A stretch of DNA of 64,000 bases from Parcubacteria group bacterium. Its GTDB lineage: Bacteria > Patescibacteriota > Microgenomatia > UBA1400 > PJMF01. The notes under the pieces were generated by a model. The model searched no databases, was not told the DNA's origin, and saw nothing but the letters and a program-made list of their open reading frames with translations. A program made the position numbers and the translations under genes. Position 1 is the stretch's first letter; the number at the start of each line of letters is the position of its first letter. Below are positions 2,561 to 27,755 of the stretch, piece by piece. Location of the stretch: contig CALQZX010000005.1 in the NCBI GenBank assembly GCA_943350175.1, positions 150-64,149 on the forward strand. Reading direction: 5' to 3'.

Positions 2561-3757
2561 ATGGCACAAATAGGAACATATACAACAAAAGAAACCCCTG
2601 TCAGAGATGATAAATTGATAGGAACAAGCTCGAACGGAGGATCAACAAATAACTTTTTATTATCTGCCATTCGTCAGGTGTACTACCCCGAAGATTATGG
2701 CGCTGTAGGTGATGGAGCTGCAGATGATACTACTGCGTTGATAAACTGTGCGTCAGCGGCTGGTGGCAAGATAATGGCACTACAGCCAGGGAAAACCTAT
2801 ATTTATTCAGGCCGAATCATACTGACCGCTAATACGATTTTAAATGGCAATCATGCAATCCTACAGCGCAGGGCCGGGACGACACTTGTGTCTACCACTC
2901 TAACAGCTATTGCCGAAAACGCTCCCAGTGGGGTAACGGTACGGGTTGCTGACCCGTCTAAATTTGCAGTGAATATGTGGGTATCTCTAGATAATAACGT
3001 TCCCTCAATGGCAGAGCCAACTTTCACTTTGGCTGGTCATAAAATCACCAATATATCAGGTGATGTGCTCACTTTGGATAGTGCGTTCACTACTGCTATG
3101 GGGATTGGCTCTTATGTGCGCATGTCTACAACGTGTATCAACGCGGGGGCAGGTTGCAAGATTCGTAACCTGAGAATAGACGGTAACAAGGCCAATCAGC
3201 TTATAGGTGCTGCTGCGTGGGGTTACTGGGGGCAGCATTATGAACTATTAGTTACATCTTCGATAGTCGAAGGATGCGAGATTTACAATGGTCAATCTGA
3301 AGGCATTGGAATGGCTGGGATACACAATGTCATAAAAAATAACAATATTCACGATTGCAATGGGAATGGAATCCATTTGTCTGCATCGGTAAGCGATGAA
3401 ATTACAGGAAATCGACTTATAAATAATAATTTGCTAGACAACAACGCATCTAACCTGCTAACCGAGAACACGGGACACAACGAAGGACATATCTGCTTTT
3501 CTGACACAACAGAAAGTACAGTTGTGTCAGGTAATCATATTATGGCAACAGGCGCGTATGGCATCGGTGCATTCGACGCTACAAATAAATATATAATTGT
3601 TAACGCTAATATTTTTGACAGTTGCGTATCTGCCCCCATGCAAATTGGTGCTGGTGCAGATGGTGTTATCCTGACCTCTAATTTCTTTATTGATTGTGGA
3701 GTACAAGGTACAGTAGGAGGCTCAGTAATTGAGCATAATCACGTTATAAACAGATAG
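2561..3757 (+). CDS. pectate-lyase-superfamily / right-handed parallel beta-helix protein (tailspike-like)
   Basis: YYPEDYGAVGDGAADDTTALINCASAAGG is the hallmark motif of Pectate_lyase_3/tailspike proteins. Repeated NNxIHDCNGNGIHL / ITGNRLINNNL coils of a parallel beta-helix follow. Confidence 0.6.
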   Translation: MAQIGTYTTKETPVRDDKLIGTSSNGGSTNNFLLSAIRQVYYPEDYGAVGDGAADDTTALINCASAAGGKIMALQPGKTYIYSGRIILTANTILNGNHAILQRRAGTTLVSTTLTAIAENAPSGVTVRVADPSKFAVNMWVSLDNNVPSMAEPTFTLAGHKITNISGDVLTLDSAFTTAMGIGSYVRMSTTCINAGAGCKIRNLRIDGNKANQLIGAAAWGYWGQHYELLVTSSIVEGCEIYNGQSEGIGMAGIHNVIKNNNIHDCNGNGIHLSASVSDEITGNRLINNNLLDNNASNLLTENTGHNEGHICFSDTTESTVVSGNHIMATGAYGIGAFDATNKYIIVNANIFDSCVSAPMQIGAGADGVILTSNFFIDCGVQGTVGGSVIEHNHVINR

Positions 3758-4269: not shown

Positions 4270-4605
4270 ATGAATAAAAAAATAATTGTTACATCTTCTC
4301 TCGCCATCATGGCACTAATCTTTGCGTCACCAGTCTTGGCTGCTTCAGCTGACGTAACCAAGATCGAGACATTCATCAAAAGTATTATCCAAATCTTAGT
4401 GACACTTGCCGGACTCATTTCCGCTGGATTCTTTGTCTGGGGTGGTGTTAGTTATATAACCAGTTCGGGCAACCCAGTTGCGTTGGATCAGGCAAAAAAC
4501 ACGATTAAATATTCAGCCATTGGATTGATCGTTGTCTTGGGAGCATTCATCTTGACTAATATCATCTCTGATTTAGCAACTGGAGCATTTGGAGCTACTC
4601 AATAG
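4270..4605 (+). CDS. VirB2/TrbC-like pilin-type protein (signal peptide + two TM helices)
   Basis: Signal peptide MNKKIIVTSSLAIMALIFASPVLA, then two hydrophobic helices separated by a short loop (…GGVSYITSSGNPVALDQAKNTIKYSAIGLIVVLGAF…). This matches the T4SS pilin architecture. Confidence 0.5.
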   Translation: MNKKIIVTSSLAIMALIFASPVLAASADVTKIETFIKSIIQILVTLAGLISAGFFVWGGVSYITSSGNPVALDQAKNTIKYSAIGLIVVLGAFILTNIISDLATGAFGATQ

Positions 4606-4631
4606 TTCCAATCTTTGGATTATGAACAACT

Positions 4632-5924
4632 ATGAAATTATTGAGTCTGGCACTAATCACCATACTTACGACACTCTTCTTCCCTTCTGTGGCCTATGCA
4701 GCAAGTAGCGCACCATCGGAAGTAACCGCTTTTACGAGTGATGCCCTCACTCTCATTACGATAATATCGGCCGCCTCAGCGGTCTTTTTTTTAATTCGCG
4801 GTGGCTATGTCTACATTACCTCAACTGGCAAGCCAGACGCGCTTGAAGAAGCAAAGAAAACTATTCGCAACTCTATCATTGGTTTAGTACTTGTCCTCGC
4901 CTCCAGTTCAATAGTCTCTGTTTTATCTGGCGCTTTGGTGGGAGGTGGCACTGCCACAAATACAGCCACTCTTCCATTAACTCAAATTGAGAGTGTTGCT
5001 CCAAGTGATGGGTTGACCCAAGTACTAATTGATGCGGTCAACGGATTTATTCAAAATATAGTTGAGAGTTCTACTAAGCCAATAGTCGATGGAATTATGA
5101 CCTTTCTTGGCTCAACTCCATCGCTTCTTGAAAATGCCTCAATCGTCAAATTCTGGCTCATTATGCTCGGTATCACCGATACTCTCTTTGTCCTTGTCGT
5201 CGCACTCCTTGGCCTCCAATTCATGAGTGCCTCCACCTTTGGCTTTGAAGAGATAGAGTTTAAACATTTACTTCCTAGAATTGGCCTGGCGTTCTTAGGG
5301 GCGAATGTCTCACTCTTTTTGGCCGATTATGCAATTAAAGCCAGCAACGCTCTGGTATCTGGGGTAATCTCTGCCACAGGAGGCCTCAATCATGCATGGA
5401 TCACGAACGCTATTACCATATCTAGTCTAACTAATGGCACTGCGCCATTTATTATTCTCATTTTCCTTTTGATATTTCTCATTGTCGCCATCGTACTACT
5501 GCTTATGTACATCAGTCGTTTGATCGTCATAGTACTTGGAGCTGTCCTTTCTCCTTTTATATTCTTACTCTCTGCTATTCCTAAAACTGCTGACTTTGCT
5601 GAGATGGCAGTTAAAGGCTATCTTGTCTCTGTATTTACGATCTTTGTTCATGTCGTAACTATTCAACTGGCTGGAACATTTTTAACCTTGCCAGAGCAAA
5701 CCAATAACTCTCTGATTTCTGTCGCTGTGGCTATCGGGTTATTACTCACTCTCTTGAAAATTCCTAGCTTCATGATGCAACTTATTCTATTTTCCCGAAG
5801 TGTTGGAGCAGTTCGACATATGGGGAGTCAAATCACCAATGTGTTAAGTACTGACTCGAGCTCAAATGTAGCCTACAAGGGCGCGAGAGCAGTCAAGATG
5901 CCCAGAAGGAGTGCAAACCTATGA
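4632..5924 (+). CDS. VirB6/TrbL-like polytopic membrane protein with N-terminal pilin-like domain
   Basis: The N-terminal ~110 aa repeat the architecture and motifs of the preceding pilin-like protein (signal peptide, RGGYVYITSTGKPDALEEAKKTIRNSIIGLVLVL). At least five further TM helices follow, typical of VirB6/TrbL. Confidence 0.5.
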   Translation: MKLLSLALITILTTLFFPSVAYAASSAPSEVTAFTSDALTLITIISAASAVFFLIRGGYVYITSTGKPDALEEAKKTIRNSIIGLVLVLASSSIVSVLSGALVGGGTATNTATLPLTQIESVAPSDGLTQVLIDAVNGFIQNIVESSTKPIVDGIMTFLGSTPSLLENASIVKFWLIMLGITDTLFVLVVALLGLQFMSASTFGFEEIEFKHLLPRIGLAFLGANVSLFLADYAIKASNALVSGVISATGGLNHAWITNAITISSLTNGTAPFIILIFLLIFLIVAIVLLLMYISRLIVIVLGAVLSPFIFLLSAIPKTADFAEMAVKGYLVSVFTIFVHVVTIQLAGTFLTLPEQTNNSLISVAVAIGLLLTLLKIPSFMMQLILFSRSVGAVRHMGSQITNVLSTDSSSNVAYKGARAVKMPRRSANL

Positions 5925-6397
5925 GAACTACCATCATCCCAGCACAAATCACTACAGTTGAGGACAAGATTGCCGGCAGTCTTAACATGACTCAAATCCT
6001 CATTATGATGTTTCCAGTTTTATGGACAGCACTCGTATACATTCTTCTTTTCCCCAGCATGAAACTAACTTCTTTCAAACTGGTATTAATTATTTTTGCC
6101 ACAGCAACCTCGGGTATTTTGGCCCTACGAATCAAAGACAAGATAGTAGCCGAGTGGTTAGGAGTTCTTCTTAAATATCGCCTCAGGCCAAAGTACTACC
6201 TATTTAACAAAAATGATTTAACTAATCGATCACTCGATATACCAGAACTACCAGTTGAGAATGTTGTCGTCAAAAAGAAGGCAAAGAAATCTATCCGAAA
6301 CGAAAACTTTGATCTGGATATCCTTGATCAGGTTAAGCTTGAGCATTTAATAAACTCAGGCAAAGTCGCCCTACACTATCAACTGAGTAAAAAATAA
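5921..6397 (+). CDS. small two-TM protein, VirB3/PrgI/TcpE-like (T4SS)
   Basis: 158 aa with two TM helices, sitting immediately upstream of VirB4. Overlaps the upstream gene by 4 nt. Confidence 0.4.
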   Translation: MRTTIIPAQITTVEDKIAGSLNMTQILIMMFPVLWTALVYILLFPSMKLTSFKLVLIIFATATSGILALRIKDKIVAEWLGVLLKYRLRPKYYLFNKNDLTNRSLDIPELPVENVVVKKKAKKSIRNENFDLDILDQVKLEHLINSGKVALHYQLSKK

Positions 6398-6398
6398 T

Positions 6399-7019
6399 AT
6401 GAAGAACTTACTACATAAATCAGGTAGCACCAGTAGTCGCCAACAAATTCAGATTAAGGAAGTGGTGGATAACATCCTCGTGCTCCCTAATAACGAATAC
6501 CGCCAGATCCTTGAAACTTCCTCGGTCAACTTCGAGCTCAAAAGTGAAGAAGAGCAGGATGTGATCATCGACAGTTTTCAAAACTTCTTAAATGCTCTGC
6601 CCTGTCAGATCCAAATTCTCGTCAGGGTACGCGAAATGGATATTGATAAATATCTCGAAGACATCGCTAAAACAAAAGATAAGGAAAAAGTTCCTGCCTA
6701 CAAAAAACAAATTGAGGGTTACTGTGCTTTTGTGAAGAAGTTGGTCTCGGGAAATAAGATCCTATCAAGACGCTTCTATATTATCGTTCCCTACAAACAT
6801 ACTGAACGTCATCAAGACATGAAGCTCATTAAAGAACATCTAAATCTTGAGAAAGACATCATCGTCAAAGGACTCGAGCGCATGCAGATGAAAGCGAGAT
6901 CGCTCTCAGGCATAGAAATCCTCAATCTCTTTTACGGTTTTTACAACGGTGAGAGCATGAAAACTCAACCCCTTACCAAAGAATCCGTGGAGGCGTTACT
7001 ACGAAATAACTATGTTTAA
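6399..7019 (+). CDS. VirB4/TrbE-type ATPase, N-terminal domain (split gene, part 1)
   Basis: QIKEVVDNILVLPNNEYRQILETSSVNFELKSEEEQDVIIDSFQNFLNALPCQIQILV matches the N-terminal domain of Gram-positive VirB4 homologues. It ends in an ATGTTTAA overlap with the next ORF. Confidence 0.55.
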   Translation: MKNLLHKSGSTSSRQQIQIKEVVDNILVLPNNEYRQILETSSVNFELKSEEEQDVIIDSFQNFLNALPCQIQILVRVREMDIDKYLEDIAKTKDKEKVPAYKKQIEGYCAFVKKLVSGNKILSRRFYIIVPYKHTERHQDMKLIKEHLNLEKDIIVKGLERMQMKARSLSGIEILNLFYGFYNGESMKTQPLTKESVEALLRNNYV

Positions 7020-8811
7020 TCTAACCAAAAAACTATCAAATCTAAAACCAATTAAAAATTGGAAACGCCAACAGCTCAAGAAGAAGTTGACCAACCAGTC
7101 GATTAACATTGCCTACGGGCAGCAAGATCAGCTCGACATGATCTCTTATGCTGGTCTTAAAGAAGAATCCAGCTATTTGCAGATCAACGATCGCTACGTC
7201 AGGACATTGTTTGTTTCAGGCTATCCCTATGTAGCCTCAACTGGCTGGCTCTCTATGCTCATTAATTTCAATCACAATATTGATATCAGCTATCACATTG
7301 AACAAGTTGATCCACTCATTGCTCTGCCCAAACTCAATAGAAAGATCACGGAGCTTGAATCCACCAAACGCACCATGCTTAAAGAAGGTAAGGTCATAGG
7401 GAGCGAAATTACTGATCCCCTCGAATCGGCTATGGAGCTTAAAGACAAAATTCAGCGGGGCATGGAGAAGCTTTTCCAAATCTCTATCTATATGACGATT
7501 AGTGCCGAGAGTTTATCAGAACTCAATAAAGTCACCAAACTCCTCGAAACGGTTATGCAGACAAGACTTTTCTACATCAAGCCCGCTACCTTCCAACAGA
7601 TCGAGGGGTTGCAGTCTATTCTCCCTAGAGCCGAGAATAAACTAGCTCAAAAACGTAATCTTGATAGCTCAAGTGCTGCCCTGACCTTCCCCTTTGTCTC
7701 CTCTGAACTCGTCCAAGAATCAGGTATCTTGTACGGTATCAACAAATCAAATAATTCTCTGGTCATTATTGATCGCTTTAGTTTAAATAATGCCAACTCT
7801 ATTATTTTTGCCCAGTCGGGATCTGGTAAAAGCTATACCGCCAAGGTGGAGATTTTAAGACACCTGATGCAGGGTACAAAGGTCATCATTATTGACCCTG
7901 AGCGCGAGTACAAACAACTGGCTAAGAGTGTGGACGGCACATATATCAAACTCTCTAGCTCATCCAAAGAAAAGATTAATCCTTTTCAGTTCTCAGAGCA
8001 CTCAGTTACCCAAGAAAACAATTTATCCGAACATATTCAGGATTTAACCGAGCTCATCTCCCTGATGGTTGGGTCACTCACCTCAGAAGAGAGGGCATCA
8101 GTTGATCGCGCACTACTTCTCACCTACAAAGAAGCCAAGCTTACTCCGCGTAAAAATGCCAAGAGATCAAAAGCAATAGAGTATCCGCTCCTGAAAGATT
8201 TCTATAAAAATTTAAAATTAATGAAACAGAAAGATTTATGCGACCGACTTGAGAGATTTGTAAAAGGATCGTTATCTACCGTCTTTGATTCCCAAACTAA
8301 TATCAAACTGGATAATCGTCTAATTGTCTTTGATATTAAAGATTTAAACGAATCAATCAGATCAATCATGATGATGGTGGTTGCTAACTTCGTTAATAAC
8401 GAAGTTAAACAAAATCCCCAGAAACGAATGCTCGTGATTGATGAGGGTTGGATGCTCCTGCAAGAACCAGAGAGTGCCAGGTTTATCTCAGGTCTAGTTC
8501 GCCGAGCAAGAAAATATTACTTAGGCGTCACGATCATCACTCAGCAAGCCAATGACTTCCTCAACCAAGACTATGGCAAAGCCATTGCTAGCCAATCATC
8601 CCTGAGAATTCTAATGCGCCAAGATACGACAACTATTAAAAAAGTGGCTGACGAGTTCCATTTATCTGCCTATGAACAACACTATCTGCTAACCTGTGAT
8701 CGAGGTGAGGCTTTAATTATTGCCGATCAAAACCATGTTGCAGTGAAAATTGTGGCCTCAGAGCAAGAACATCCACTTCTGACTACTGATCCCCGGGAAG
8801 TCTATATCTAG
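7012..8811 (+). CDS. VirB4/TrbE-type T4SS ATPase, C-terminal ATPase domain (split gene, part 2)
   Basis: Walker A IIFAQSGSGKSYTAKVEIL, Walker B RMLVIDEGWMLL, and the overall VirB4/CagE/TrbE C-terminal layout. Confidence 0.8.
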   Translation: MFNLTKKLSNLKPIKNWKRQQLKKKLTNQSINIAYGQQDQLDMISYAGLKEESSYLQINDRYVRTLFVSGYPYVASTGWLSMLINFNHNIDISYHIEQVDPLIALPKLNRKITELESTKRTMLKEGKVIGSEITDPLESAMELKDKIQRGMEKLFQISIYMTISAESLSELNKVTKLLETVMQTRLFYIKPATFQQIEGLQSILPRAENKLAQKRNLDSSSAALTFPFVSSELVQESGILYGINKSNNSLVIIDRFSLNNANSIIFAQSGSGKSYTAKVEILRHLMQGTKVIIIDPEREYKQLAKSVDGTYIKLSSSSKEKINPFQFSEHSVTQENNLSEHIQDLTELISLMVGSLTSEERASVDRALLLTYKEAKLTPRKNAKRSKAIEYPLLKDFYKNLKLMKQKDLCDRLERFVKGSLSTVFDSQTNIKLDNRLIVFDIKDLNESIRSIMMMVVANFVNNEVKQNPQKRMLVIDEGWMLLQEPESARFISGLVRRARKYYLGVTIITQQANDFLNQDYGKAIASQSSLRILMRQDTTTIKKVADEFHLSAYEQHYLLTCDRGEALIIADQNHVAVKIVASEQEHPLLTTDPREVYI

Positions 8812-8813
8812 CT

Positions 8814-9416
8814 ATGAATCCAAAGCTAGTACTTACACTCTGGTCGTTTCGCAAAGAACTTAAATTCGTCCTCCTCGCATTCCTCACCATCCTCATGCTT
8901 CCTGTCATTGCGGTCATTCTGCTGACTCAGGTGGGTATAAATATTATCTCCGACAAGTTGGTTGATCAAAATCCGACCAATCAAAGCATCCAGATCAAAG
9001 ACCCAACAACTGGAGAGGTAGTCAAAGAAATTAATCCGACAGTTGTCTGGCCCACCAAAGGGGTAATTACTCTGGAATTTGCACAATCGAGCATGTATCA
9101 GGTCTTCCATACTGGCATAGATATTGCCAGTAAGCTAGATGAACCAGTGAACCCCGCTATGGAAGGCACTGTTATTTATGCGGGAGAGATATTTTGGGGA
9201 TTTGGTAAGCATGTCATTATTGATCACGGAAATAATGTCGTGACTATCTATGCCCACCTAAACAAGATTTACGTCTTTAAAGGCCAAAAGGTGACCACCA
9301 GCGACGTAATTGGTGGCCAAGGTCAAACAGGTTGGGCTACTGGAGTTCACCTTCACTTTCAGGTGAATATATATGGGATACCAGTCAATCCGAGGGTGTT
9401 TTTGGATATTAGATAG
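8814..9416 (+). CDS. M23 family metallopeptidase with N-terminal TM anchor (putative T4SS-associated cell-wall hydrolase)
   Basis: HTGIDIA…GTVIYAG…HVIIDHGNNVVTIYAHL…GWATGVHLHFQV gives the M23 LytM-type HxxxD / HxH motifs. Confidence 0.8.
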   Translation: MNPKLVLTLWSFRKELKFVLLAFLTILMLPVIAVILLTQVGINIISDKLVDQNPTNQSIQIKDPTTGEVVKEINPTVVWPTKGVITLEFAQSSMYQVFHTGIDIASKLDEPVNPAMEGTVIYAGEIFWGFGKHVIIDHGNNVVTIYAHLNKIYVFKGQKVTTSDVIGGQGQTGWATGVHLHFQVNIYGIPVNPRVFLDIR

Positions 9417-9484: not shown

Positions 9485-11860
9485 ATGACCAAAAACAATA
9501 AAGGACTATTTAATAAAAAGGTTGAAAGTCTTTTGCGTAGATTACTTAGAAATGGCAACCGAAAATTTATTTCTATCAATAAGCTCATAGCGTTCAATTA
9601 TTACCTCATTGCGCTGAGAGCAAAAACATTTTTCAGATTTCGAGTTCTCCATTTTCTTAACGCCAAGAAAATGCTTATTGGTTCGTTGATTTATTTTTTG
9701 CTCCTGATAGGCTCTATACTTTTATTAGGGCAGTTTATTGATCCAGCATTTGCTAGGAGTGATGCCATCACCTTTTTTACAGCAGTAGCGGCCATGATCG
9801 GTGGTATCTTAGCAATTATCTTTTCACTTAGTATTCTCCTGATGGGAAATGCAGCAGAGCGTATTCCGGTAGGTTTTTATGAGACTGCTGCAAGAGATTG
9901 GTTGCACGATGTGATATTTTTTCTCATTAGCATTTGTTCTTTAGTGGTCTTCTCTTTTGCACTACTATTTAGCAAACTCAATCTAGGGCTTACGGTACTC
10001 TCTTTTCAGTCAGCTATATTTTTGATTGGCTTTGTTTTCTACCTAACCTTTGTCTTCTATCAAAGAGTTCGAGACAGGCTTGACCCAAATAATGTATTAA
10101 AAATTGCCTCTAAGCAAGCCTTCGCCAAGTTAGACTTCACTCATAAACGAGCTCAAGAAATCGCTGACGTTTTGATTAGACAGCCAAAGTTGGATAAAAA
10201 GGTCACTAAAGAGGAAGCATTGGCAACTTCTTTTCAATATTTGAAACCAGAGTTTGCTTACATCAATAGCAGACTCAACTATCTTTTTGACTATCATGGA
10301 AAATTGGTGGCCTCCAACGAGAGAAGCTCTGCTCTTGGTGTTCTGCAGGTAATAACCAATATTCTTCAAAAGTATTTTCAAACCAGAAAAGATTCCTCGT
10401 TCGTACTACCTGCCGGATTTATTTTAGCCACCACGAGCGATTCTTGTGCTTTCCTAACTCCTCCACTAGAAAGACTAGTGGCTGTTGGTGAAAATTACAT
10501 GAGAGAAAATGACAATGAAGGGATTACCCGAGTAATTTCTATCTTTGTGCAGTTATGTAAGTCAGCCAGTGAGATCAACTATCTGACCAAACATAAGGTA
10601 GAAAGCCCAATAATGGAGCAATGTAGAGGCTACCTAAACCAACTGCTTGAGAGTGCTATTAAATTTAACTATCAGGAGGCTCTATTCCAAGGCATATTAG
10701 CATATGAAGAAATAATTCCAATCGTAATAAAACAGAATCTCCACCATGAGTTTATATCGATTTATGACATGCTCGACAAGATTGCCATGAGTGCCCTAAC
10801 AAACAAATATAACGTAGTTTTAGGTCAGGTAATAAATACTTACACTTCGATTCTGTCTCAACTGATAGCGACAAAATACTTTAACTTGGAAATGGAACTA
10901 GGTTCTTTATGGGAACACTTGAGGAATATTATTTTTTACGCATATGTTTCTATGGTGACTGGCTCTCTTGATAACAGCTTTTCAGTTCAAACAAACTTAG
11001 CAAACCCATTCACAGCAATGTCCTCGATGATTTTCCAAACAGCAAGAGCAGCTACGAACGCTAAAACTGAAGAAGAAATCAACGACTGGAAGGAGGCATT
11101 CTTTACTACTACAGAGGAGTTAAGATCTACTCTCCGCTACCTTTCAGAAAAGATGAAGACAGCCAATCACATTTTGATCAGCACCTTTGGTGAGATTATT
11201 TCCGATGTAGGTTGTTTATTAGTCGACTTGACTAAAAACGGGAAATGGGCAGGTGATAAAGAAGAACTCACAAAACAAATTGGTTGGTATATCTTCCAGA
11301 CAGAATGGTTTACCCATGACCTTAAAAAGATCAAAGATAACAATTCGTTTGACTCTCTAATTGAAGCAGCATCAAAAATAGGTATAAGAGCCATGCAACA
11401 AGAGTTAGATCAAACTGCCAAGGATGCAATTAAAATTCTTTACAACTTTGCCATTAAGATGATGACTTTAGGTGAAGGTGATAGTTATGGTTTTACGGAA
11501 CCAAGAATAATGGAGAGAGCTTGCTACATTGGAGTGCTGGCTCTTAAATTGGGTAAAACAGAGATTATAGACGATTTGAAAGGTTATATAAAAACCTTTG
11601 AAGATGCATATCGAAAAAAATGGTATCCAGAAGGGCCACCAGAAAAAGGAAAGTTAATCTCGCCAAGTTATGATCAACTAATGATGGAAGTGCATGGTCT
11701 TGTAGAAAAGAAAAGAAGTCGTTACGGGCTTTTACCAATTATGGATCGAGCAGATGATGATCTACTACCACTCATCACAGAAGAAGATGTAAACAAATTT
11801 ATTATGGAAGTCTGGGGTGTAACGATTGAAACTAAGACTAGTAGCAGTATGTTTTTTTAA
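9485..11860 (+). CDS. large membrane-anchored protein of unknown function (5-6 N-terminal TM helices + ~600-aa helical domain)
   Basis: Hydrophobic N-terminal third, long soluble C-terminal part, no recognisable catalytic motif. Confidence 0.4.
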   Translation: MTKNNKGLFNKKVESLLRRLLRNGNRKFISINKLIAFNYYLIALRAKTFFRFRVLHFLNAKKMLIGSLIYFLLLIGSILLLGQFIDPAFARSDAITFFTAVAAMIGGILAIIFSLSILLMGNAAERIPVGFYETAARDWLHDVIFFLISICSLVVFSFALLFSKLNLGLTVLSFQSAIFLIGFVFYLTFVFYQRVRDRLDPNNVLKIASKQAFAKLDFTHKRAQEIADVLIRQPKLDKKVTKEEALATSFQYLKPEFAYINSRLNYLFDYHGKLVASNERSSALGVLQVITNILQKYFQTRKDSSFVLPAGFILATTSDSCAFLTPPLERLVAVGENYMRENDNEGITRVISIFVQLCKSASEINYLTKHKVESPIMEQCRGYLNQLLESAIKFNYQEALFQGILAYEEIIPIVIKQNLHHEFISIYDMLDKIAMSALTNKYNVVLGQVINTYTSILSQLIATKYFNLEMELGSLWEHLRNIIFYAYVSMVTGSLDNSFSVQTNLANPFTAMSSMIFQTARAATNAKTEEEINDWKEAFFTTTEELRSTLRYLSEKMKTANHILISTFGEIISDVGCLLVDLTKNGKWAGDKEELTKQIGWYIFQTEWFTHDLKKIKDNNSFDSLIEAASKIGIRAMQQELDQTAKDAIKILYNFAIKMMTLGEGDSYGFTEPRIMERACYIGVLALKLGKTEIIDDLKGYIKTFEDAYRKKWYPEGPPEKGKLISPSYDQLMMEVHGLVEKKRSRYGLLPIMDRADDDLLPLITEEDVNKFIMEVWGVTIETKTSSSMFF

Positions 11861-11868
11861 CATGCATA

Positions 11869-12090
11869 ATGAACTATAATAACTTTATGTCGCCAGAAAA
11901 GATTGGTAAAAAACTAAAAGAAGCACGTATAAGGCTTGGACTTACGCAATCTGATGTGGCTGAAAAAGCTGGCATTAGCGCGAATTATTACGCCAGAGTT
12001 GAACGAGACGAGGAAAACACTACGGTTGAAACCTTGAAAGGAATCTGTAAGGTTCTGAAGATCAAATCCTCGAAAGTACTTTCTTTTTAA
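11869..12090 (+). CDS. XRE-family (Cro/C1) HTH transcriptional regulator
   Basis: IGKKLKEARIRLGLTQSDVAEKAGISANYYARVERDEE is a canonical HTH_3 motif. Confidence 0.7.
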   Translation: MNYNNFMSPEKIGKKLKEARIRLGLTQSDVAEKAGISANYYARVERDEENTTVETLKGICKVLKIKSSKVLSF

Positions 12091-12320
12091 TCTTTCTTGA
12101 GCTTGATTGGATCAATTTTTCCGGACTGTTCGTCTTCTACAAGTTTGTGTGCTAGTTCATGAGCCATATCTGCATTTTCCTCTAGAAACTTGATTGCATC
12201 CTCCCGAGTAGCGTTCTTATCTTTGTTCGTGCGAAGATATCCGAGAATCCCGTCAATATCTTTCTCGGTAATTTGGTAGCCTGAGTTTTGCGTCATATGG
12301 TCGAAGTATAACACTTTCAT
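12087..12320 (-). CDS. small hypothetical protein (last gene of PLD-nuclease operon)
   Basis: 77-aa ORF overlapping the stop of the nuclease gene by 4 nt. Its own 3' end overlaps the convergent XRE gene by 4 nt. Confidence 0.4.
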   Translation of the reverse strand: MKVLYFDHMTQNSGYQITEKDIDGILGYLRTNKDKNATREDAIKFLEENADMAHELAHKLVEDEQSGKIDPIKLKKD

Positions 12321-12763
12321 ATGTATCTCCCAAAATTCAAATAATTAAACATATCTACGGCGAAGCCGCCGCCCTCCATGCGGCGCATGATTTCTCTACT
12401 ATGAATCTGCGATAAAATGTTCAAACTGCCTTCCCAAAGAATGCTTCTATCAATAATTGCTAGTTTCCGGTGATGATTGCCTGTGCAGAGCAAAACCTGT
12501 ATTCCTAAGGCTTCACAAGCCTCGATTTCACTCTCCGACTGGACTTCGTAGCCATCACTGTGGTCTTGGGGATCACGGGTGATAATATAGATTTTAACTC
12601 CCTTGGAGTAGGCATGCTTTAAGCTCGGCCAGAGCATTTTCATTCGACTGGAGGTGATAAACGGACTTTCGATGATTATTTCCTCGGCAGCTTGGTCAAG
12701 ATCCCTCAAGAAGGCTTTGTAGAACGTCTTTTCATCATAGAGAGTGGAGTTGTAGTTATTCAT
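12317..12763 (-). CDS. phospholipase-D-family (HKD) nuclease, Nuc-like
   Basis: A single HKD motif, HHRKLAIIDRSILWEGSLNI (HxKx4D…GSxN). At 148 aa it is the size of the Nuc/BfiI-type minimal PLD nuclease domain. No signal peptide. Confidence 0.65.
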   Translation of the reverse strand: MNNYNSTLYDEKTFYKAFLRDLDQAAEEIIIESPFITSSRMKMLWPSLKHAYSKGVKIYIITRDPQDHSDGYEVQSESEIEACEALGIQVLLCTGNHHRKLAIIDRSILWEGSLNILSQIHSREIMRRMEGGGFAVDMFNYLNFGRYI

Positions 12764-12956
12764 GGCTCACCTCCATGTTATCAATATAGACAATTTTCCC
12801 GTTTACCTCTTGGATACCAAGTTCTTGAAGTTTATAATACGTCTTGATCACACTGTCAAAAAGCAGTTCCACCTGTAAGACAGTGGGCTCACATATAAAA
12901 ACAGACGCATTTATGCGTCTTTTTTTATATGTGAGAGCCGGTATTGATGAGAGCAC
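12756..12956 (-). CDS. doubtful small ORF overlapping hairpin repeat
   Basis: 66-aa ORF whose 5' part is embedded in the terminator-like palindrome at 12886-12950. It may be spurious. Confidence 0.2.
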   Translation of the reverse strand: MLSSIPALTYKKRRINASVFICEPTVLQVELLFDSVIKTYYKLQELGIQEVNGKIVYIDNMEVSHE

Positions 12957-12960
12957 ATGG
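12886..12960. repeat. bidirectional terminator-like repeat unit, copy A (A-run / hairpin / T-run, plus a conserved 3' extension)
   Basis: ggctcacatataaaaac-AGACGCAtttaTGCGTCT-ttttttatatgtgagagcc, followed by ggtattgatgagagcacatgg. Confidence 0.55.
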
Positions 12961-13053
12961 TTCGCGTTATTGAGCTAAATAATGCACATGAGCATAGCGA
13001 GGCGCATTATGCTCAATAATCTGAGGCGGCGTAGCACGCTCAGCGTCTCCACC

Positions 13054-13131
13054 GGACTCACTTTATAAAAAAATCACGCTGCAAGCGTGTTTTTTTATAA
13101 ATGAGGCTGGTTTTGATGAGAACACATGTGG
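13054..13131. repeat. bidirectional terminator-like repeat unit, copy B
   Basis: ggactcactttataaaaaaat-CACGCTtgcAAGCGTG-tttttttataaatgaggctgg, followed by ttttgatgagaacacatgtgg. Same architecture as copy A, with a different but self-complementary stem (compensatory changes). Confidence 0.55.
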
Positions 13132-13778
13132 CAGGTTGTAGTAGAATTCAATTATTAACCTTCCAAACGTCGCATATACAGGCGACGTTTGGCGACTTAT
13201 TCCGCATAGGCTTTATGGCTATCATCTTAATACATCTACTCAATTATTCGGGACTTGTGAGTATAGTTCTCAGCTTGGCGTTGTTTTCGTGGAGTTGGGT
13301 TGTTAGCGGGCTTAGCCTAAAATCCAACGTTTTGTGTGATTGTGGCAGTAATAAGTGTTCCAAGATATTCAACCCAGCTCTATCAATATTCGGCACTTTG
13401 CAAGTTATCTTCACTTGGGTTATTATCAACAAGTTTCTCCTAGCTCCATTTCATTGGATTATTCTTCCGCCATTAATGGCGGGCTTAATGGTTTTGGGAT
13501 TATCTGTATTTGATAATGCCAAGCATAAGCCTCTTCATGAAGCACTAGGCTATTCGACTTTTATTATCCTATCTGTTTGGGCGATCATTTTCTCGCTTAT
13601 GCTTGGTACCGCCAATAATTTTATTGGTTTCGTTTCCGGAATTATTGCCACATTTTTAGCTCTTGGAACGCTTATTGCCTATCGTAAGTACAGGCTCTGC
13701 GCTATTCCAGAGTTAGTATTCATCCTAGGGGTGTTCATTTGGAATATTTTCTTTACTTACTCGATATTCTTTCTCTAA
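13101..13778 (+). CDS. hypothetical polytopic membrane protein
   Basis: At least five TM helices. The first 38 codons lie inside repeat copy B, so the true start is more likely the ATG at 13215 (MAIILIHLL…). Confidence 0.4.
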   Translation: MRLVLMRTHVAGCSRIQLLTFQTSHIQATFGDLFRIGFMAIILIHLLNYSGLVSIVLSLALFSWSWVVSGLSLKSNVLCDCGSNKCSKIFNPALSIFGTLQVIFTWVIINKFLLAPFHWIILPPLMAGLMVLGLSVFDNAKHKPLHEALGYSTFIILSVWAIIFSLMLGTANNFIGFVSGIIATFLALGTLIAYRKYRLCAIPELVFILGVFIWNIFFTYSIFFL

Positions 13779-13868
13779 TCCAGCCTATGCGAAATACGTC
13801 GCCTAACTAGCGTGTATGTGGTTTGGGCTCAGCTCGTCCTCACTTTATATTGTATAATTTCCTAGAAT

Positions 13869-14492
13869 ATGTCTCCAATCAATCCTATTCATTTTATCTA
13901 CTTTGATGTTGGCGGAGTTCTTCTTGAATTTGAACGCTCTCGCACTGAAATTCCTCAAATATTTGGTATTGATAAAGTAAGCTATAGTCAAATTATGGCC
14001 AACGTCGCTCATCAGCGCAACATTGGTAAATTAAATGGTCAAGAATTGGAAGTTATTTTTAATAAAGAATTTGGCAAAGTATTTCCTAAAGGATACTGGG
14101 TTACTGGCCAATCCGCAGAGTTCTTTTCTCCTATCAAAGAAATGCATGATTTTATTGTAAAACTAGCTACACATTATCGCTTAGGTTTATTAACCAATGT
14201 TAATCGTGAAATTCATGAGAGAATACAAAAAGATTTTATCACTGTACTTTACCCACCAGTAGATTTTGAAATAAAAATCACTTCTTTTGAAGAAGGTGTG
14301 GCTAAACCAGACTTAGAAATTTATCGTCGTGCTATTGCTCGCACCAACCTTCACGCAGCAGAAATTTTATTTATTGACGATAAATTAGAAAATATTACCG
14401 CAGCCAAACAGGCAGGTATGCAAGCAATGCTGTTTGAAACTAAAAATCCACAAAAAATGATAGAAAATTTGAGCAAACTGCTTTTGTCGTAG
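13869..14492 (+). CDS. HAD-superfamily hydrolase (subfamily IA-like)
   Basis: Motif I YFDVGGVL, motif II GLLTN, motif III AKPD, motif IV FIDD. Confidence 0.75.
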   Translation: MSPINPIHFIYFDVGGVLLEFERSRTEIPQIFGIDKVSYSQIMANVAHQRNIGKLNGQELEVIFNKEFGKVFPKGYWVTGQSAEFFSPIKEMHDFIVKLATHYRLGLLTNVNREIHERIQKDFITVLYPPVDFEIKITSFEEGVAKPDLEIYRRAIARTNLHAAEILFIDDKLENITAAKQAGMQAMLFETKNPQKMIENLSKLLLS

Positions 14493-14494
14493 GT

Positions 14495-16294
14495 TTGCAC
14501 TTCCCTCTTTTTTCCTTTATAATTTTTGTCATGCCCACCGACACACGTTTACTTTATGTTCTAGCCGACTTGGCTTATATAGCCAAATTAATTCCTGGCA
14601 AAAAAGCCCACGATTTCATTTTGTCCGACTTTCGCCAGATCAATGGTGAATTTTTGGACGAAAATATTTTACTTGAAGCAAATTTAACTAAACTTTTTTC
14701 TAAATTAGAAGCCGGAAGTTATAAATTGATTCTTCCAGACTTTCTATTTACCAGCACCATCATCAATGTTGAATTTGATAATGAAGAAGCAGTCAAAGAG
14801 CATCTAAAAAATAAATTGTTGCCAGAACTTGGTATTAATAGTGAAGATTATTATCTTGATACAACGGTTCTTAGTAACTATAAAGGATCGTTCAAAGTTC
14901 AGCTGACTGCTTTGGAGAAATCAGTGGTCGCTCCGCTTGCCAAAATTCTCAAGGAAAACAAAGAAGTCAAAATTGACGCCATTTCCCCACTTAGTTGGAC
15001 CACTAAATCAATAATTAGCCTAGAGCCTTCCGTGGCGATCTTACAAATGGGCAATCATTTGTTTTTGGCAGAGCATTACATCGGTGTTGACCAATGCTAT
15101 GCTGTCGAAGTTGCAGAAGCTGCTAATTTTACCGACACAGTTCAGACTCTCAAAGGTGCTGAGCCAAGTTTGCAAACTGTCTATTTATTAACCAATAGTT
15201 TGGTTGATGACGCCATCAAAGAAAAACTTAAAGAAACTTTACCAGTTCAGCAATTGGCAGATCTGGCTAGTGAAGGTGGCAACATGCCTTCCTACGTCAA
15301 GCAAATCATTGAATCTGGAGCAAAAACCTTTTCTATTCCAGAATTTTTATTGCCACAGTTTGTTTTAGATAAGAACTACGAAGCCAAAGCAGCTGCGTCG
15401 AATAAAAAAGAAGACGAAGATTTAAGCAATCTAGTTAAACCAGCAGTGATCGGTGAAATTGTCTCGCCTACCCCAATCAATGTCAAAATTGAAGAAAAGG
15501 TTGAGGTGGCCGTAGAAAGTTTAGACGAAGAGGTGGAAGATAAGCCTGAACTTGTCGAAGAAAAAGTCGAAGAAAAAATAGTTGAAAAAGAACCAGAAAA
15601 AGTTGAGGAGCTTAAAATGCCAGAAAAACCAATAGAAGTAAAAGAAAAAGAAGTAGATTTTAGTCAATTTGCCAATTTAGCCATCGATTCATCAGTATTT
15701 AACAAAAACAAACAGTCTGCAGCTGGACAAACACAGCCAGCTAAAGACGGAAAGGGAGAGATGCCTTTAACAGATCTTCCAGAGAAAAAAATAATCAAAA
15801 ACCAAAATGATGGCTCTTCAGTGGCCAAGATGATTTTTATTGGCTTCTTGAGTTTTGTAGTCACCATTGCTCTTGGAATTGGAATTGGTTTGGCCTATTT
15901 AAAGTGGACAAATAGCAGCGACAATAGCAAGCCAGTGGTTGAAATTAACCCTACCGTTACTCCAACAATCGTAGCTACTGCCACTCCAGCTCCATTACCA
16001 ACAATCAAGAAAGCTGATTATAAGATTATAGTCGTAAATGCCACCACTAAAGCTGGTTATGCTTCTACCATTGTTGCCAAAGTTAAGGCAGCAGACTTTA
16101 AAGATGTATCTGCCAAGAATGCTAAAGGCATTTATGACAAAGGCGATTATCTTTTAGTCAAAGAAGATACTGCTGTGAATCAATCTTTATTAAAAGAACT
16201 AGAAAAAGCAACTTCTCTAACTTTGACTCTCAAAACTGGGATTGAGAAGGAAGACGCTAGTAGTGCTAGCGCCGTCATCGTACTCGGACAGTAG
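14495..16294 (+). CDS. membrane-anchored protein with E/K-rich low-complexity linker and C-terminal LytR_C-like domain
   Basis: The C-terminus (KIIVVNATTKAGYASTIVAKVKAA…AVIVLGQ) matches the LytR/CpsA/Psr C-terminal domain. There is an internal TM helix (MIFIGFLSFVVTIALGIGIGLAYL) and a long EEKVE/KEPEK repeat region. Confidence 0.45.
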   Translation: MHFPLFSFIIFVMPTDTRLLYVLADLAYIAKLIPGKKAHDFILSDFRQINGEFLDENILLEANLTKLFSKLEAGSYKLILPDFLFTSTIINVEFDNEEAVKEHLKNKLLPELGINSEDYYLDTTVLSNYKGSFKVQLTALEKSVVAPLAKILKENKEVKIDAISPLSWTTKSIISLEPSVAILQMGNHLFLAEHYIGVDQCYAVEVAEAANFTDTVQTLKGAEPSLQTVYLLTNSLVDDAIKEKLKETLPVQQLADLASEGGNMPSYVKQIIESGAKTFSIPEFLLPQFVLDKNYEAKAAASNKKEDEDLSNLVKPAVIGEIVSPTPINVKIEEKVEVAVESLDEEVEDKPELVEEKVEEKIVEKEPEKVEELKMPEKPIEVKEKEVDFSQFANLAIDSSVFNKNKQSAAGQTQPAKDGKGEMPLTDLPEKKIIKNQNDGSSVAKMIFIGFLSFVVTIALGIGIGLAYLKWTNSSDNSKPVVEINPTVTPTIVATATPAPLPTIKKADYKIIVVNATTKAGYASTIVAKVKAADFKDVSAKNAKGIYDKGDYLLVKEDTAVNQSLLKELEKATSLTLTLKTGIEKEDASSASAVIVLGQ

Positions 16295-23793: not shown

Positions 23794-24654
23794 TTGGCGA
23801 GGTATACTTGGATTATGCTAGAAAAAGCCAGTCAACCAATTCATAAGGTTGCAATTTTTCAGGGAATAAAGGTACGTAGAATTATCCACGATGGGGAGTG
23901 GTGGTTTTCGGTGGTGGATGTGATTAGAGTGTTGACGAATAGCAATAAACCAGCAGTTTATTGGAGCGTCATGAAGACTAGAGTTGAATCTAACGATGGT
24001 TTCCAGTTGTTTACAATTTGTAAACAACTGAAAATGAAATCAAATGATGGCAAAAGTTATGCTACCGATTGTGCTAATACCGAAGGTCTTTTTCGCATTA
24101 TTCAATCCATCCCCTCTCCCAAAGCCGAACCTTTTAAACGTTGGTTAGCCAAAGTTGGCTTTGAGCGTATTCAAGAGATTGAAAATCCAGAGTTAGCCAG
24201 CAAACGAACAAGACTACTTTACAAGTTGAAAGGCTATTCGGATGCCTGGATTGAAAAAAGGATGCGTGGCATTACCATTAGAGAAGAATTAACTGATGAA
24301 TGGAAAAAAAGAGGTGCAGAGCAACAAAAAGATTTTGAAATTTTAACAGCCGAAATATCCAAGGCAACATTCGGTCTCACACCGAGTGAATACAAAGAAC
24401 TAAAAGGTCTCAAGCGAGAAAACTTGCGTGATCACATGGATGATTTCGAGCTAATCTTCACCATGCTTGGCGAACGTTCTACCACAGAAATTCACAGAAT
24501 TGAAGATTCCAGTGGCGTGCCAAAATTGCAGTCTGATGCCAAGCGAGGTGGTGGGATTGCTGGTGTAGCCAGAACAGAGTTGGAAAAAGAAATTGGGAAA
24601 AAGGTGATGAGGGAAGAAAATTTTTTGCCAAAAGATGTGGAAAAATTAAAGTAA
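23794..24654 (+). CDS. Bro-N domain protein (phage antirepressor / DinD-like)
   Basis: KVRRIIHDGEWWFSVVDVIRVLTNSNKPAVYW is a typical Bro-N core. The C-terminal part is KilA/ANT-like. Confidence 0.6.
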   Translation: MARYTWIMLEKASQPIHKVAIFQGIKVRRIIHDGEWWFSVVDVIRVLTNSNKPAVYWSVMKTRVESNDGFQLFTICKQLKMKSNDGKSYATDCANTEGLFRIIQSIPSPKAEPFKRWLAKVGFERIQEIENPELASKRTRLLYKLKGYSDAWIEKRMRGITIREELTDEWKKRGAEQQKDFEILTAEISKATFGLTPSEYKELKGLKRENLRDHMDDFELIFTMLGERSTTEIHRIEDSSGVPKLQSDAKRGGGIAGVARTELEKEIGKKVMREENFLPKDVEKLK

Positions 24655-27700: not shown

Positions 27701-27755
27701 AGGACTTAAATATAAGAAATGTGGATTGATCGGAGCGAGTGAGCATAAGGAGTAA
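24714..27755 (+). CDS. secA: preprotein translocase ATPase SecA
   Basis: DEAD-motor motifs, preprotein cross-linking domain, and the C-terminal zinc finger CPCGSGLKYKKCG. Confidence 0.95.
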   Translation: MFKFLKKFFDEEAKKLNKYQLVVDQINSFEPAMQALSDAELAAQTAKFKAQIAEAVAGASKENLKEKEQAILSEILPEAYATVREASHRILGMRHFDVQLLAGVALNDGNITEQKTGEGKTLTVTAPLYLNALLGKSVQLITVNDYLSEIGLGWMGPLYHFLGLKAAVIVHDHARLYNPDIDSEERGDERLEHFQEIPRQDAYLADITYGTNNEFGFDYLRDNMVQSLDQMVQRQNMPHYFAIVDEADSILIDEARTPLIISAPDSEPTDKYFEYAKMVRSLVIDQDFKLDEKSKTATLTDLGVKRIEAKLGVKNLYEESFDTIHHVESSLKASTLYRRDKEYIVKDNQVVIVDEHTGRLMFGRRYSDGLHQAIEAKEGVPIQQESRTLATVSLQNYFRMYQKLSGMTGTALTEAEEFNQIYHVDVLSIPTNQAVVRQDLPDQVYKNTAAKYSAIVRAVEEIHADGRPVLIGTRSIEHNQIVANFLKRKNIPHQVLNAKNHEKEAFIIADAGRRGAITVATNIAGRGVDIVLGGAKPELKDFLKAERSKKRTVLAKKYEKLGLPTSINPANYDLDAYATALEKWQADHDDVVSVGGLAIVATERHESRRIDNQLRGRAGRQGDPGTSQFFVALDDEIMRIFGGEQIAKVMDFLKIDEDQAIENPMVSKAIESAQVKVETFFFDQRKRLVEFDDVMNKHREIIYKRRRRLLEAGTVDVKPGKGSDDKLATVLIDEEGKKITLKDQIMNYLSNEITGLVSLRAPENFTDEEFEAISKEFVKIIPFDDASQKRLSQKISKLSNTDEISSELLEVVSKTYESREKTLGEAIMRELEKYVVLSTIDEKWMDHLDGIEDLREGIWLRGDKNTVLAEYKKEAFAMFEGLISSVESTIAARIFRVQPMMQRSTMPTQVQLQAPSEATPSLGQAVQVERRQENVNSSSANRSGGNGKTSDLAAALGKMGGGNGNNLRSGLSGNGGQAESDKYAKVGRNDLCPCGSGLKYKKCGLIGASEHKE

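Follow-up and report, generated by a model that had tools for sequence, protein, structure and literature searches.

A total of four genes were found in a compact cassette of about 1.03 kb located in a stretch of 64,000 nucleotides (nt) from a Parcubacteria group bacterium (contig CALQZX010000005.1), which is referred to here as the window. Three of the genes form a minus-strand operon in which a small open reading frame (sORF) of 38 amino acids (aa) is followed by a single-HKD nuclease of the phospholipase D (PLD) superfamily with 148 aa and by a partner protein of 77 aa, whereas the fourth gene runs convergently on the plus strand and encodes an XRE/Cro-type helix-turn-helix (HTH) regulator of 67 aa. 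The sORF and PLD genes overlap by 8 nt, the PLD and partner genes by 4 nt, and the stop codons of the partner and XRE genes overlap as well. The Pfam matches of the nuclease (PLDc_2, E=2.7e-12) and the regulator (HTH_3, E=1.2e-14), the invariance of the HKD catalytic residues among 52 homologues and the repeated finding of the sORF/PLD/partner/XRE gene order in dozens of loci together indicate that this layout is real and not a product of chance.

The initial annotation of this DNA had described the 148-aa open reading frame (ORF) with one HKD motif (12317-12763, minus strand), the 77-aa ORF (12087-12320, minus strand) that overlaps the PLD stop codon by 4 nt (ATGA), and a 4-nt overlap (TTAA) between the 3' ends of the operon and of an XRE ORF at 11869-12090 (plus strand), and all three were borne out. 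A comparison of neighbourhoods across genomes, which it had proposed as a check, showed that the 77-aa partner and the XRE gene facing it are conserved companions of the PLD gene. Other parts had to be revised. The upper bound of the operon at 12956 derives from a 66-aa ORF with a non-conserved beginning, the upstream 38-aa gene was missed in what had been taken for a two-gene operon, the discrete nature of the cassette was not recognized, and the XRE gene almost certainly starts at the ATG at 11887 (67 aa) and not at 11869.

The boundaries of the cassette were found to be sharp. Blastn comparison of window positions 10500-14500 with the homologous loci (numbered with the prefix L) gave a single block with the same ends each time, from about 11875 to about 12892, and no DNA homology was found outside 11875-12892 to loci with unrelated flanks. 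The same gene trio was observed in wholly different flanks in the contigs of homologues that were looked up. The locus is therefore a discrete cassette, and it is limited to the Candidate Phyla Radiation (CPR)/Patescibacteria. No published description of this PLD-XRE module was found in our literature search.

The PLD gene carries its HKD motif at codons ~12419-12472. The stretch HHRKLAIIDRSILWEGSLN matches the pattern HxK-x4-D-x6-GSxN exactly (H98, K100, D105, G112, S113 and N115), reading H98-R-K100-LAII-D105-RSILWE-G112-S113-L-N115. The PLDc_2 (PF13091) score of 47.1 bits lies above the curated cut-off of 27. The best PADLOC match was the C-terminal nuclease domain of Mokosh MkoC (positions 987-1107, E=2.4e-13), followed by MkoB (1.6e-7) and DISARM DrmC (1.5e-5). 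A profile built from the 52 homologues found mouse Zucchini/MitoPLD (4ggj) as its best match in the PDB (1.3e-5), with NucT at 0.046. Foldseek searches with an AlphaFold2 (AF2) model of the protein (predicted local distance difference test score, pLDDT, 79; predicted template modelling score, pTM, 0.78) matched 124 PDB entries with E<=1e-3, of which the 50 listed are without exception PLD-fold proteins; NucT (6ehi, 4e-10, template modelling score 0.73-0.76) ranked first, Zucchini (3e-9) second and Nuc (1byr, 1.8e-8) ninth.

An exhaustive HMMER search against 1.84 billion representative sequences found 571 PLD relatives at E<=1e-10. Some are stand-alone proteins with lengths of 145-170 aa (~150-165 aa among the closest relatives), and the others form the C-terminal domain of proteins of ~1050 aa. 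These long proteins combine an AAA_11/AAA_12 superfamily 1 helicase with PLDc_2 and Zn_ribbon_Top1 domains and match MkoA at 5e-58 and MkoC at 1e-45. The PADLOC, PDB-profile and fold matches, the invariant motif and the helicase-fused relatives argue for a protein of the nuclease type, neither a lipid enzyme nor a member of the plasmid Nuc family, and as judged from sequence and the structural model it is a single-HKD protein of the Mokosh/Zucchini clade. The proposal of a single-HKD nuclease, as opposed to a lipid-synthase fragment, is thus upheld, as PLDc_2 passes its cut-off and the best matches are Zucchini, NucT and Nuc. Membership in the plasmid Nuc/NucT family, which had also been suggested, does not hold: two NCBIfam NucT equivalog scores stay far below their cut-offs (20.4 bits against 351 and 14.5 against 297), no hydrophobic stretch indicative of a signal peptide was seen on reading the N-terminus MNNYNSTLYDEKTFYKAFLRDLDQ by eye, and tblastn gave no plasmid or phage matches. 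The 148-aa protein was also found to have no transmembrane segment. A separate two-HKD PLDc_2 protein of 381 aa with a cardiolipin-synthase-like architecture occurs at 1276-2421 in L003-L005, 1.6 kb upstream of the cassette in Collierbacteria-like strains; it bears no relation to the single-HKD nuclease of the cassette.

The sORF (12756-12872, minus strand; V/M-ELLFDSVIKTYYKLQELGIQEVNGKIVYIDNMEVSHE) encodes an acidic protein (isoelectric point, pI, 4.6) and contains the Shine-Dalgarno sequence of the PLD gene (GGAGGTG, 12768-12774). Its codon-position entropy of 0.66/0.33/1.13 and the mostly synonymous changes, found in this frame alone, indicate that it is truly coding. An ORF of exactly 38 codons with the same start position was found in more than 20 loci, with GTG as the start codon and TTG in distant loci. 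Where the module is reduced, the PLD gene retains the sORF and not the 77-aa protein. A search with a 47-aa query stretch found only nine annotated homologues among 5.8 billion proteins, with no fusions among them, so the sORF is essentially unannotated; no matches were found in Pfam, PADLOC or PHROG. The 66-aa ORF that reaches 12956 is spurious in its N-terminal part, as its first 28 codons cross a non-conserved terminator hairpin and only the last 38 codons, at 12756-12872, are conserved. One homologue, P0178 (161 aa, cut at the contig end), has an N-terminal segment, LIKSLLQMYNKLLQLGYTSF, that resembles the sORF helix in frame with the PLD domain, the resemblance being weak (E=0.007). This apparent natural fusion of sORF helix and PLD could be real or could be a gene-calling or frameshift artefact, and it gives a weak hint of a physical sORF-PLD association.

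The partner gene (12087-12320, minus strand) is preceded by a GGGAG Shine-Dalgarno sequence 5 nt upstream. Every full cassette has it in this position behind the PLD gene, and members of its family are found as far as the clade in which PLD identity is 60%. The gene encodes an acidic protein (pI 5.3) that is predicted to form a helical hairpin, with helices at residues 19-33 and 39-66 in the AF2 model (pLDDT 73), and that belongs to an orphan family for which no significant relatives were found in the PDB by structure and profile searches or in Pfam, PADLOC, PHROG and NCBIfam. In L048 (1582-1999), the space between the PLD and XRE genes is occupied by two tandem partner paralogues of 73 and 62 aa. 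Proteins located beyond the XRE gene in L013, L021, L044 and L050 appeared partner-like by eye through a DPxNAT-like motif; an iterated hidden Markov model search was negative, a Pfam scan of partner-like proteins from other architectures returned only noise, and homology is not claimed. Neither the sORF nor the partner resembles a known antitoxin in profile and structure searches.

The XRE regulator (11887-12090, plus strand) is basic (pI 9.6), and its stop codon shares the TTAA at 12087-12090 with that of the partner gene. Its PADLOC matches include HTH_VI (2.9e-13), CapH (2.9e-11) and restriction-modification (R-M) control proteins (2.3e-7 to 1e-5), and these are unspecific, as many repressor, antitoxin, C-protein and CapH models score alike. 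The start at 11887 is indicated by the 67-aa length of the homologues and from a TAnnnT box located 5-7 nt before that ATG; the longer ORF from 11869 is probably unused. This box, without a Shine-Dalgarno sequence, was observed in 18 of 24 distinct loci. In the window it reads TATAAT (11875-11880) and is followed by a 6-nt spacer up to the ATG, so that the right edge of the cassette (11875-11886, plus strand) coincides with the hexamer at which DNA conservation stops. The short distance between hexamer and ATG and the missing Shine-Dalgarno sequence suggest that the XRE mRNA is leaderless.

The left edge is marked by a cis element of 27 nt, GTGAGCCCACTGTCTTACAGGTGGAAC (12866-12892, minus strand), which contains an imperfect palindrome (CCACTGT/ACAGGTGG) and the sORF start codon. 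It occurs once in the window against an expectation of 0. DNA homology to all loci with unrelated flanks begins with this element (GTGAGCCCACTGTNNCACAGGTGGAAC). It hardly varies, not even where PLD identity has dropped to 60%, and can be considered a candidate operator or initiation element. In L065, an identical motif precedes both of two PLD operons while an XRE gene adjoins only one of them, which would fit regulation in trans by a single XRE protein. The best sigma-70-like match of the region (12811-12838, plus strand; TGGATA-N16-TATAAT, 10/12) was found antisense within the sORF, aimed at the flanking terminator at 12903-12920, and could give rise to a short antisense RNA over the sORF start and the 27-nt element.

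PLD homologues are numerous, with more than 4,000 matches. The close ones (70-94% identity) are nearly all of 148 aa and occur across Collierbacteria, Shapirobacteria and other CPR metagenomes. Their distribution is patchy, as only 15 loci were found when one genome was taken for each of 185,579 species. Five architectures were distinguished. Type A, in which sORF, PLD and partner genes face the XRE gene, accounts for nearly all loci with a PLD at least 60% identical. In type B (L011-13, L021 and L052; ~52% identity), the PLD gene faces the XRE gene directly, and neither an sORF nor a partner gene can be recognised; the ends of the converging genes overlap here as they do in type A. Type C (L022-24, L055/56 and the first L065 copy) is reduced to the sORF and PLD genes, the HKD motif being intact. 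The remaining two are helicase-PLD fusions (type D) and stand-alone proteins of ~160 aa in Saccharibacteria (type E).

A solo sORF-PLD unit and a full cassette were found 3.6 kb apart in one genome each for L024 and L065, the latter on a contig of 1.29 Mb. The L065 solo unit (2788-3406) and full cassette (6981-7961) are separated by a MarR-ABC transporter operon. A gene for a Ppl-like PHP-ATPase comes after the full cassette, and beyond it lie T4SS (type IV secretion system) genes. L023 and L024 are 99.98% identical and diverge exactly at TGTGA|GC, the left edge of both PLD units: a tRNA-Lys(ttt) 3' end in L023 corresponds to the full cassette in L024 (L023 9081-9153 against L024 6563), and to the left of the solo unit (L023 4872 against L024 2354) a def gene in L023 gives way to two unrelated genes in L024. 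L065 indicates that the L024 arrangement is older than that of L023. The proteins of the window and L002 differ in their conservation, with 97% identity for VirB4 and 95% for the M23 peptidase against 81% for PLD, 84% for XRE and 64% for the partner, whereas DNA divergence is similar (83% vs 78%). Weaker or diversifying constraint is thus indicated for the cassette proteins.

The window is part of a Microgenomates-like CPR chromosome (ENA assembly ERZ27280308), and genes for TatC, a CPR-type T4SS cluster, GreA, class I LysRS, SerRS and a HAD protein were identified in it. The T4SS-like cluster (4270-9416, plus strand) contains two T4SS_pilin/TrbC genes, PrgI, a 206-aa ORF, a 599-aa VirB4/TraG-P-loop ATPase and an M23 peptidase. 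The L002 and L028 homologues of the 206-aa ORF match the TraC-like family PF26593, and the annotated part of the window shows no relaxase gene. The slot between the M23 and XRE genes is filled by an orphan of 791 aa (9485-11860, plus strand) with hydrophobic N-terminal segments, for which no Pfam, NCBIfam, PADLOC or PHROG match was found; its 3' end lies 26 nt ahead of the XRE ATG, and no terminator separates the two.

In at least nine independent lineages (the window, L002-5, L008, L013, L028/29, L046/47, L048, L050 and L065), the T4SS cluster carries the cassette at its distal end, always with VirB4 and M23 first, then a variable slot and then the XRE gene facing the PLD operon. This set includes type B and a VirB4 only ~31% identical to that of the window. 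The slot holds a 316-aa orphan in L002, the Fic-domain protein SoFic (1e-53) in L028, Ppl (1.6e-28) in L065 and membrane proteins of ~260 aa in L013, L048 and L050. Other contexts comprise AbiEi/AbiEii directly upstream in L028, a PDC-S06/LmuB-like (Lamassu-like) ATPase with ResIII in L026 and an IS3 transposase in L002, and the solo units adjoin an ABC transporter. The link to the adjacent T4SS-like region put forward in the initial annotation accordingly holds as a recurrent genomic association, and the defence or toxin-type role suggested there fits the AbiEi/AbiEii, SoFic, Ppl and PDC-S06/LmuB-like neighbours.

We interpret the cassette as a self-regulated nuclease-inhibitor module of a defence or toxin-antitoxin (TA)-like kind that is restricted to CPR, a reading of the sequence data to which we would give about an even chance. 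It is supported by the family, fold and defence-type relatives of the nuclease, the constant ends of the cassette in many unrelated flanks, the tight gene overlaps, the defence genes beside independent copies, the faster evolution of its proteins compared with their neighbours, the coding sORF that accompanies the PLD gene, the conserved geometry of the XRE promoter and the 27-nt motif shared by both L065 operons. The cytoplasmic single-HKD protein would dimerise to form one active site, as in Nuc and Zucchini, and would cut nucleic acid through a phospho-histidine intermediate, with single-stranded RNA or single-stranded DNA as the likeliest substrate by analogy with the Mokosh nuclease domains, Zucchini and NucT. 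This potentially self-damaging activity would be restrained at two levels, protein and expression. The two small acidic proteins are expected to be translationally coupled to the nuclease, and the sORF product would more likely be its direct binder and neutraliser, or a subunit, because the sORF is obligate and lies upstream in an antitoxin-like position, while the 77-aa helical protein may be a dispensable modulator or a second inhibitor. On the side of expression, the basic XRE repressor, presumably made from a leaderless mRNA, would bind the palindromic 27-nt element at the 5' edge of the operon. Since the convergent units have overlapping stops and leave no room for a terminator, each would also transcribe antisense into the other, and expression would be mutually exclusive and switch-like. 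Attack by a phage or mobile element, or loss of the module, might then release the nuclease and lead to degradation of nucleic acid in the manner of abortive infection or a TA system.

Several observations weigh against this interpretation. The T4SS-adjacent position is conserved over very deep CPR lineages, which points to an old resident more than to a fast-moving defence gene, and the intact solo units without partner or XRE gene indicate that the PLD is tolerated in the absence of two of the four genes. No clear signatures of toxin decay were found. Of the seemingly broken copies, that of L051 is interrupted by a run of N at an assembly gap and that of L044 proved intact, its appearance being due to an artefact of ORF calling, which leaves a single in-frame stop in L060; the argument that the toxin decays first was therefore withdrawn. 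Nothing that would explain the mobility of the cassette was found: there are neither terminal inverted or direct repeats nor an integrase, recombinase or consistent tRNA target, and the IS3 element accounts only for the difference of the L002 strain. Tblastn of the PLD gave zero matches in 72,556 plasmids and 50,697 phages and no PLD homologues were found on viral contigs, and a phage or plasmid origin was rejected on these grounds. With regard to regulation, the operator was assigned solely from position and palindromy, the operon leader shows no unusual RNA structure (z=0.6) and a scan found no sigma-70-like promoter for the PLD operon. A candidate promoter identified manually within the sORF (TTGACA-N17-TATAAA) was dropped as it is not conserved in divergent cassettes.

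Among the alternatives, the one that survives best, although we consider it unlikely, links the PLD directly to the T4SS. The PLD would be either a secreted effector, with the 77-aa protein providing immunity and the sORF product serving as adaptor or chaperone, or a nuclease that processes nucleic acid imported through the T4SS for salvage, like NucT of H. pylori. The effector layout usually places the immunity gene directly downstream of the toxin gene, which corresponds to the position of the partner gene. The order from VirB4 through M23 and the slot to the XRE and PLD genes recurs in the lineages listed above, distant PLD clades included, and the slot of L028 is filled by a Fic-domain protein. 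NucT, the best fold match, has been implicated in the salvage of purines and in natural transformation (PMC5714352), and the T4SS of Patescibacteria have no relaxases and have probably been taken over for functions other than conjugation (PMC12102498). On the other hand, most of the distinct loci whose flanks are long enough have no T4SS genes nearby, the PLD shows neither a secretion signal nor a T4SS recognition domain of a known type, and the solo units adjoin an ABC transporter. The presence of recognised defence genes (SoFic and Ppl) in the slot argues that the T4SS cluster ends in a variable or defence island and not in a functional operon, and the text of PMC12102498 and its consulted supplements make no mention of nucleases or PLD genes near virB4.

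A related and rather improbable possibility is a novel conflict module, specific to CPR, with a functional tie to the T4SS. A helicase-less PLD of the Mokosh clade would be exported as an effector together with a downstream immunity protein and an upstream adaptor peptide, or would be licensed by the T4SS, and the convergent arrangement would act as a bistable switch. Read-through from the T4SS operon would then silence the nuclease operon through antisense transcription and additional XRE protein.

It is similarly doubtful that the PLD is a housekeeping nuclease for RNA or DNA turnover or repair, regulated by XRE and equipped with small accessory subunits but having no role in conflict. The wide spread in CPR with more than 4,000 matches, the constant length of 148 aa at 70-94% identity, the chromosomal location beside GreA, LysRS and HAD genes and the tolerance of solo copies would all be in keeping with such a role. 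However, the gene has no fixed position, as the flanks of close relatives are wholly different, it is present in two copies per genome in L024 and L065, and the cassette proteins evolve faster than those of the T4SS neighbours. Its relatives are defence nucleases and its neighbours defence genes, and 15 loci over 185,579 species genomes represent a patchy occurrence.

A solitary restriction-type PLD endonuclease, either of type IV or BfiI-like, that is timed by a C-protein-like XRE regulator appears very unlikely. BfiI and SauUSI use PLD nucleases as restriction domains, and the XRE protein does match R-M control-protein models and HTH_VI, but these matches are generic and many antitoxin and repressor families score similarly. 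Furthermore, no methyltransferase, DNA-recognition domain or helicase was found in the PLD or the cassette, nor was a methyltransferase found among the annotated genes of the cassette and its flanks, and C-proteins are normally encoded upstream of the nuclease gene in the same direction, whereas the XRE gene is convergent. Finally, a lipid-enzyme remnant (half of a cardiolipin or phosphatidylserine synthase), as suggested by automatic JGI names ('phosphatidylserine/phosphatidylglycerophosphate/cardiolipin synthase-like') and a weak NCBIfam cardiolipin synthase match (1.9e-3), was rejected and is effectively excluded by far sub-threshold scores (TIGR04265, 17.2 bits vs 290; ClsB, 11.3 vs 281), the single HKD motif, the lack of a membrane segment, the constant length of 148 aa, the invariant motif and the nuclease relatives found by both sequence and fold.

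The nuclease-inhibitor module that we favour shares features with several known systems. Mokosh is the closest in terms of the nuclease, as the MkoC/MkoB-type PLD domain is the best family match and the nearest multi-domain relatives match MkoA and MkoC. However, no helicase was found in the PLD gene, the cassette or the annotated neighbours (window 19-24654), and the PLD gene is accompanied instead by genes for two small orphans and by the XRE gene that faces them; the cassette is confined to CPR, and the helicase-fused PLD relatives occur only in other genomes. DISARM also includes a stand-alone PLD nuclease, DrmC, but the match of the cassette PLD is weaker than that to Mokosh and no DrmA, DrmB (DUF1998), DrmE or methylase genes lie nearby. 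Zucchini/MitoPLD (PLD6), an endoribonuclease of piRNA biogenesis, has a single HKD motif and a similar core size, and its dimeric active-site logic is expected to be shared by the cassette PLD; the two differ in that identity is ~20% over the fold-aligned region and the cassette PLD lacks an N-terminal membrane anchor. NucT (H. pylori) and Nuc (pKM101, Salmonella) are minimal single-HKD nucleases tied to type IV secretion or uptake, as the cassette is by its position, but they are exported with signal peptides, which the cassette PLD does not have, and the latter has no tblastn match in plasmids.

Three-component TA systems such as omega-epsilon-zeta and paaR-paaA-parE comprise a harmful enzyme, small coupled proteins without DNA-binding domains and a separate HTH regulator. 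The cassette resembles them in its potentially harmful enzyme, its tightly coupled small proteins and its separate HTH regulator, and it has two genes in candidate antitoxin positions, the sORF upstream (8-nt overlap) and the partner downstream (4-nt overlap). It differs in that the regulator is not the first gene of the operon but is convergent with overlapping 3' ends. PLD was not found described as a TA toxin family in the literature searched. The cassette would represent a new, CPR-restricted variant among PLD-nuclease conflict modules.

CPR/Patescibacteria make up a large share of bacterial diversity, yet their defence, toxin and regulatory modules are almost uncharted and most of their small genes are unannotated. 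The cassette provides a compact four-gene system of 1 kb without a helicase, built around a nuclease clade that is common to Mokosh and animal piRNA biogenesis. Both of its orphan micro-proteins are conserved and are candidate nuclease inhibitors, and one of the two is absent from almost every annotation. The conserved convergent and apparently leaderless layout of the regulator could reveal how bacteria of minimal size keep a dangerous enzyme in check. By its repeated placement at the T4SS end, the cassette marks a region, variable or devoted to defence, next to machinery that is known to be needed for the epibiotic lifestyle. Should the function prove ordinary, annotation would still improve for several thousand 'cardiolipin synthase-like' proteins.

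Additional structures were observed upstream of the operon. A hairpin with 23-bp arms and T-runs on both sides (12888-12935), which resembles a bidirectional terminator, lies outside the conserved cassette and is not conserved in the other loci; in this genome it may shield the PLD operon against transcription that enters from upstream. A second bidirectional-terminator-like hairpin was found at 13075-13089. Each hairpin is followed by one copy of a direct repeat of ~45 nt (12915-12959 and 13085-13128, with a spacing of 170 nt), and the second copy overlaps the start of a membrane ORF of 225 aa (13101-13778). With a further inverted repeat at 12967-13019, the repeats and hairpins at 12888-13128 may represent a small duplicated or inserted element. 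An Rfam scan of 11000-14500 returned just sub-threshold miRNA and isrK matches on the terminator hairpins. Further along the window, a Bro-N domain protein of a phage-associated family (23794-24654, plus strand) is followed by an ORF of 1013 aa (24714-27755, plus strand), and this region may be a prophage or mobile remnant.

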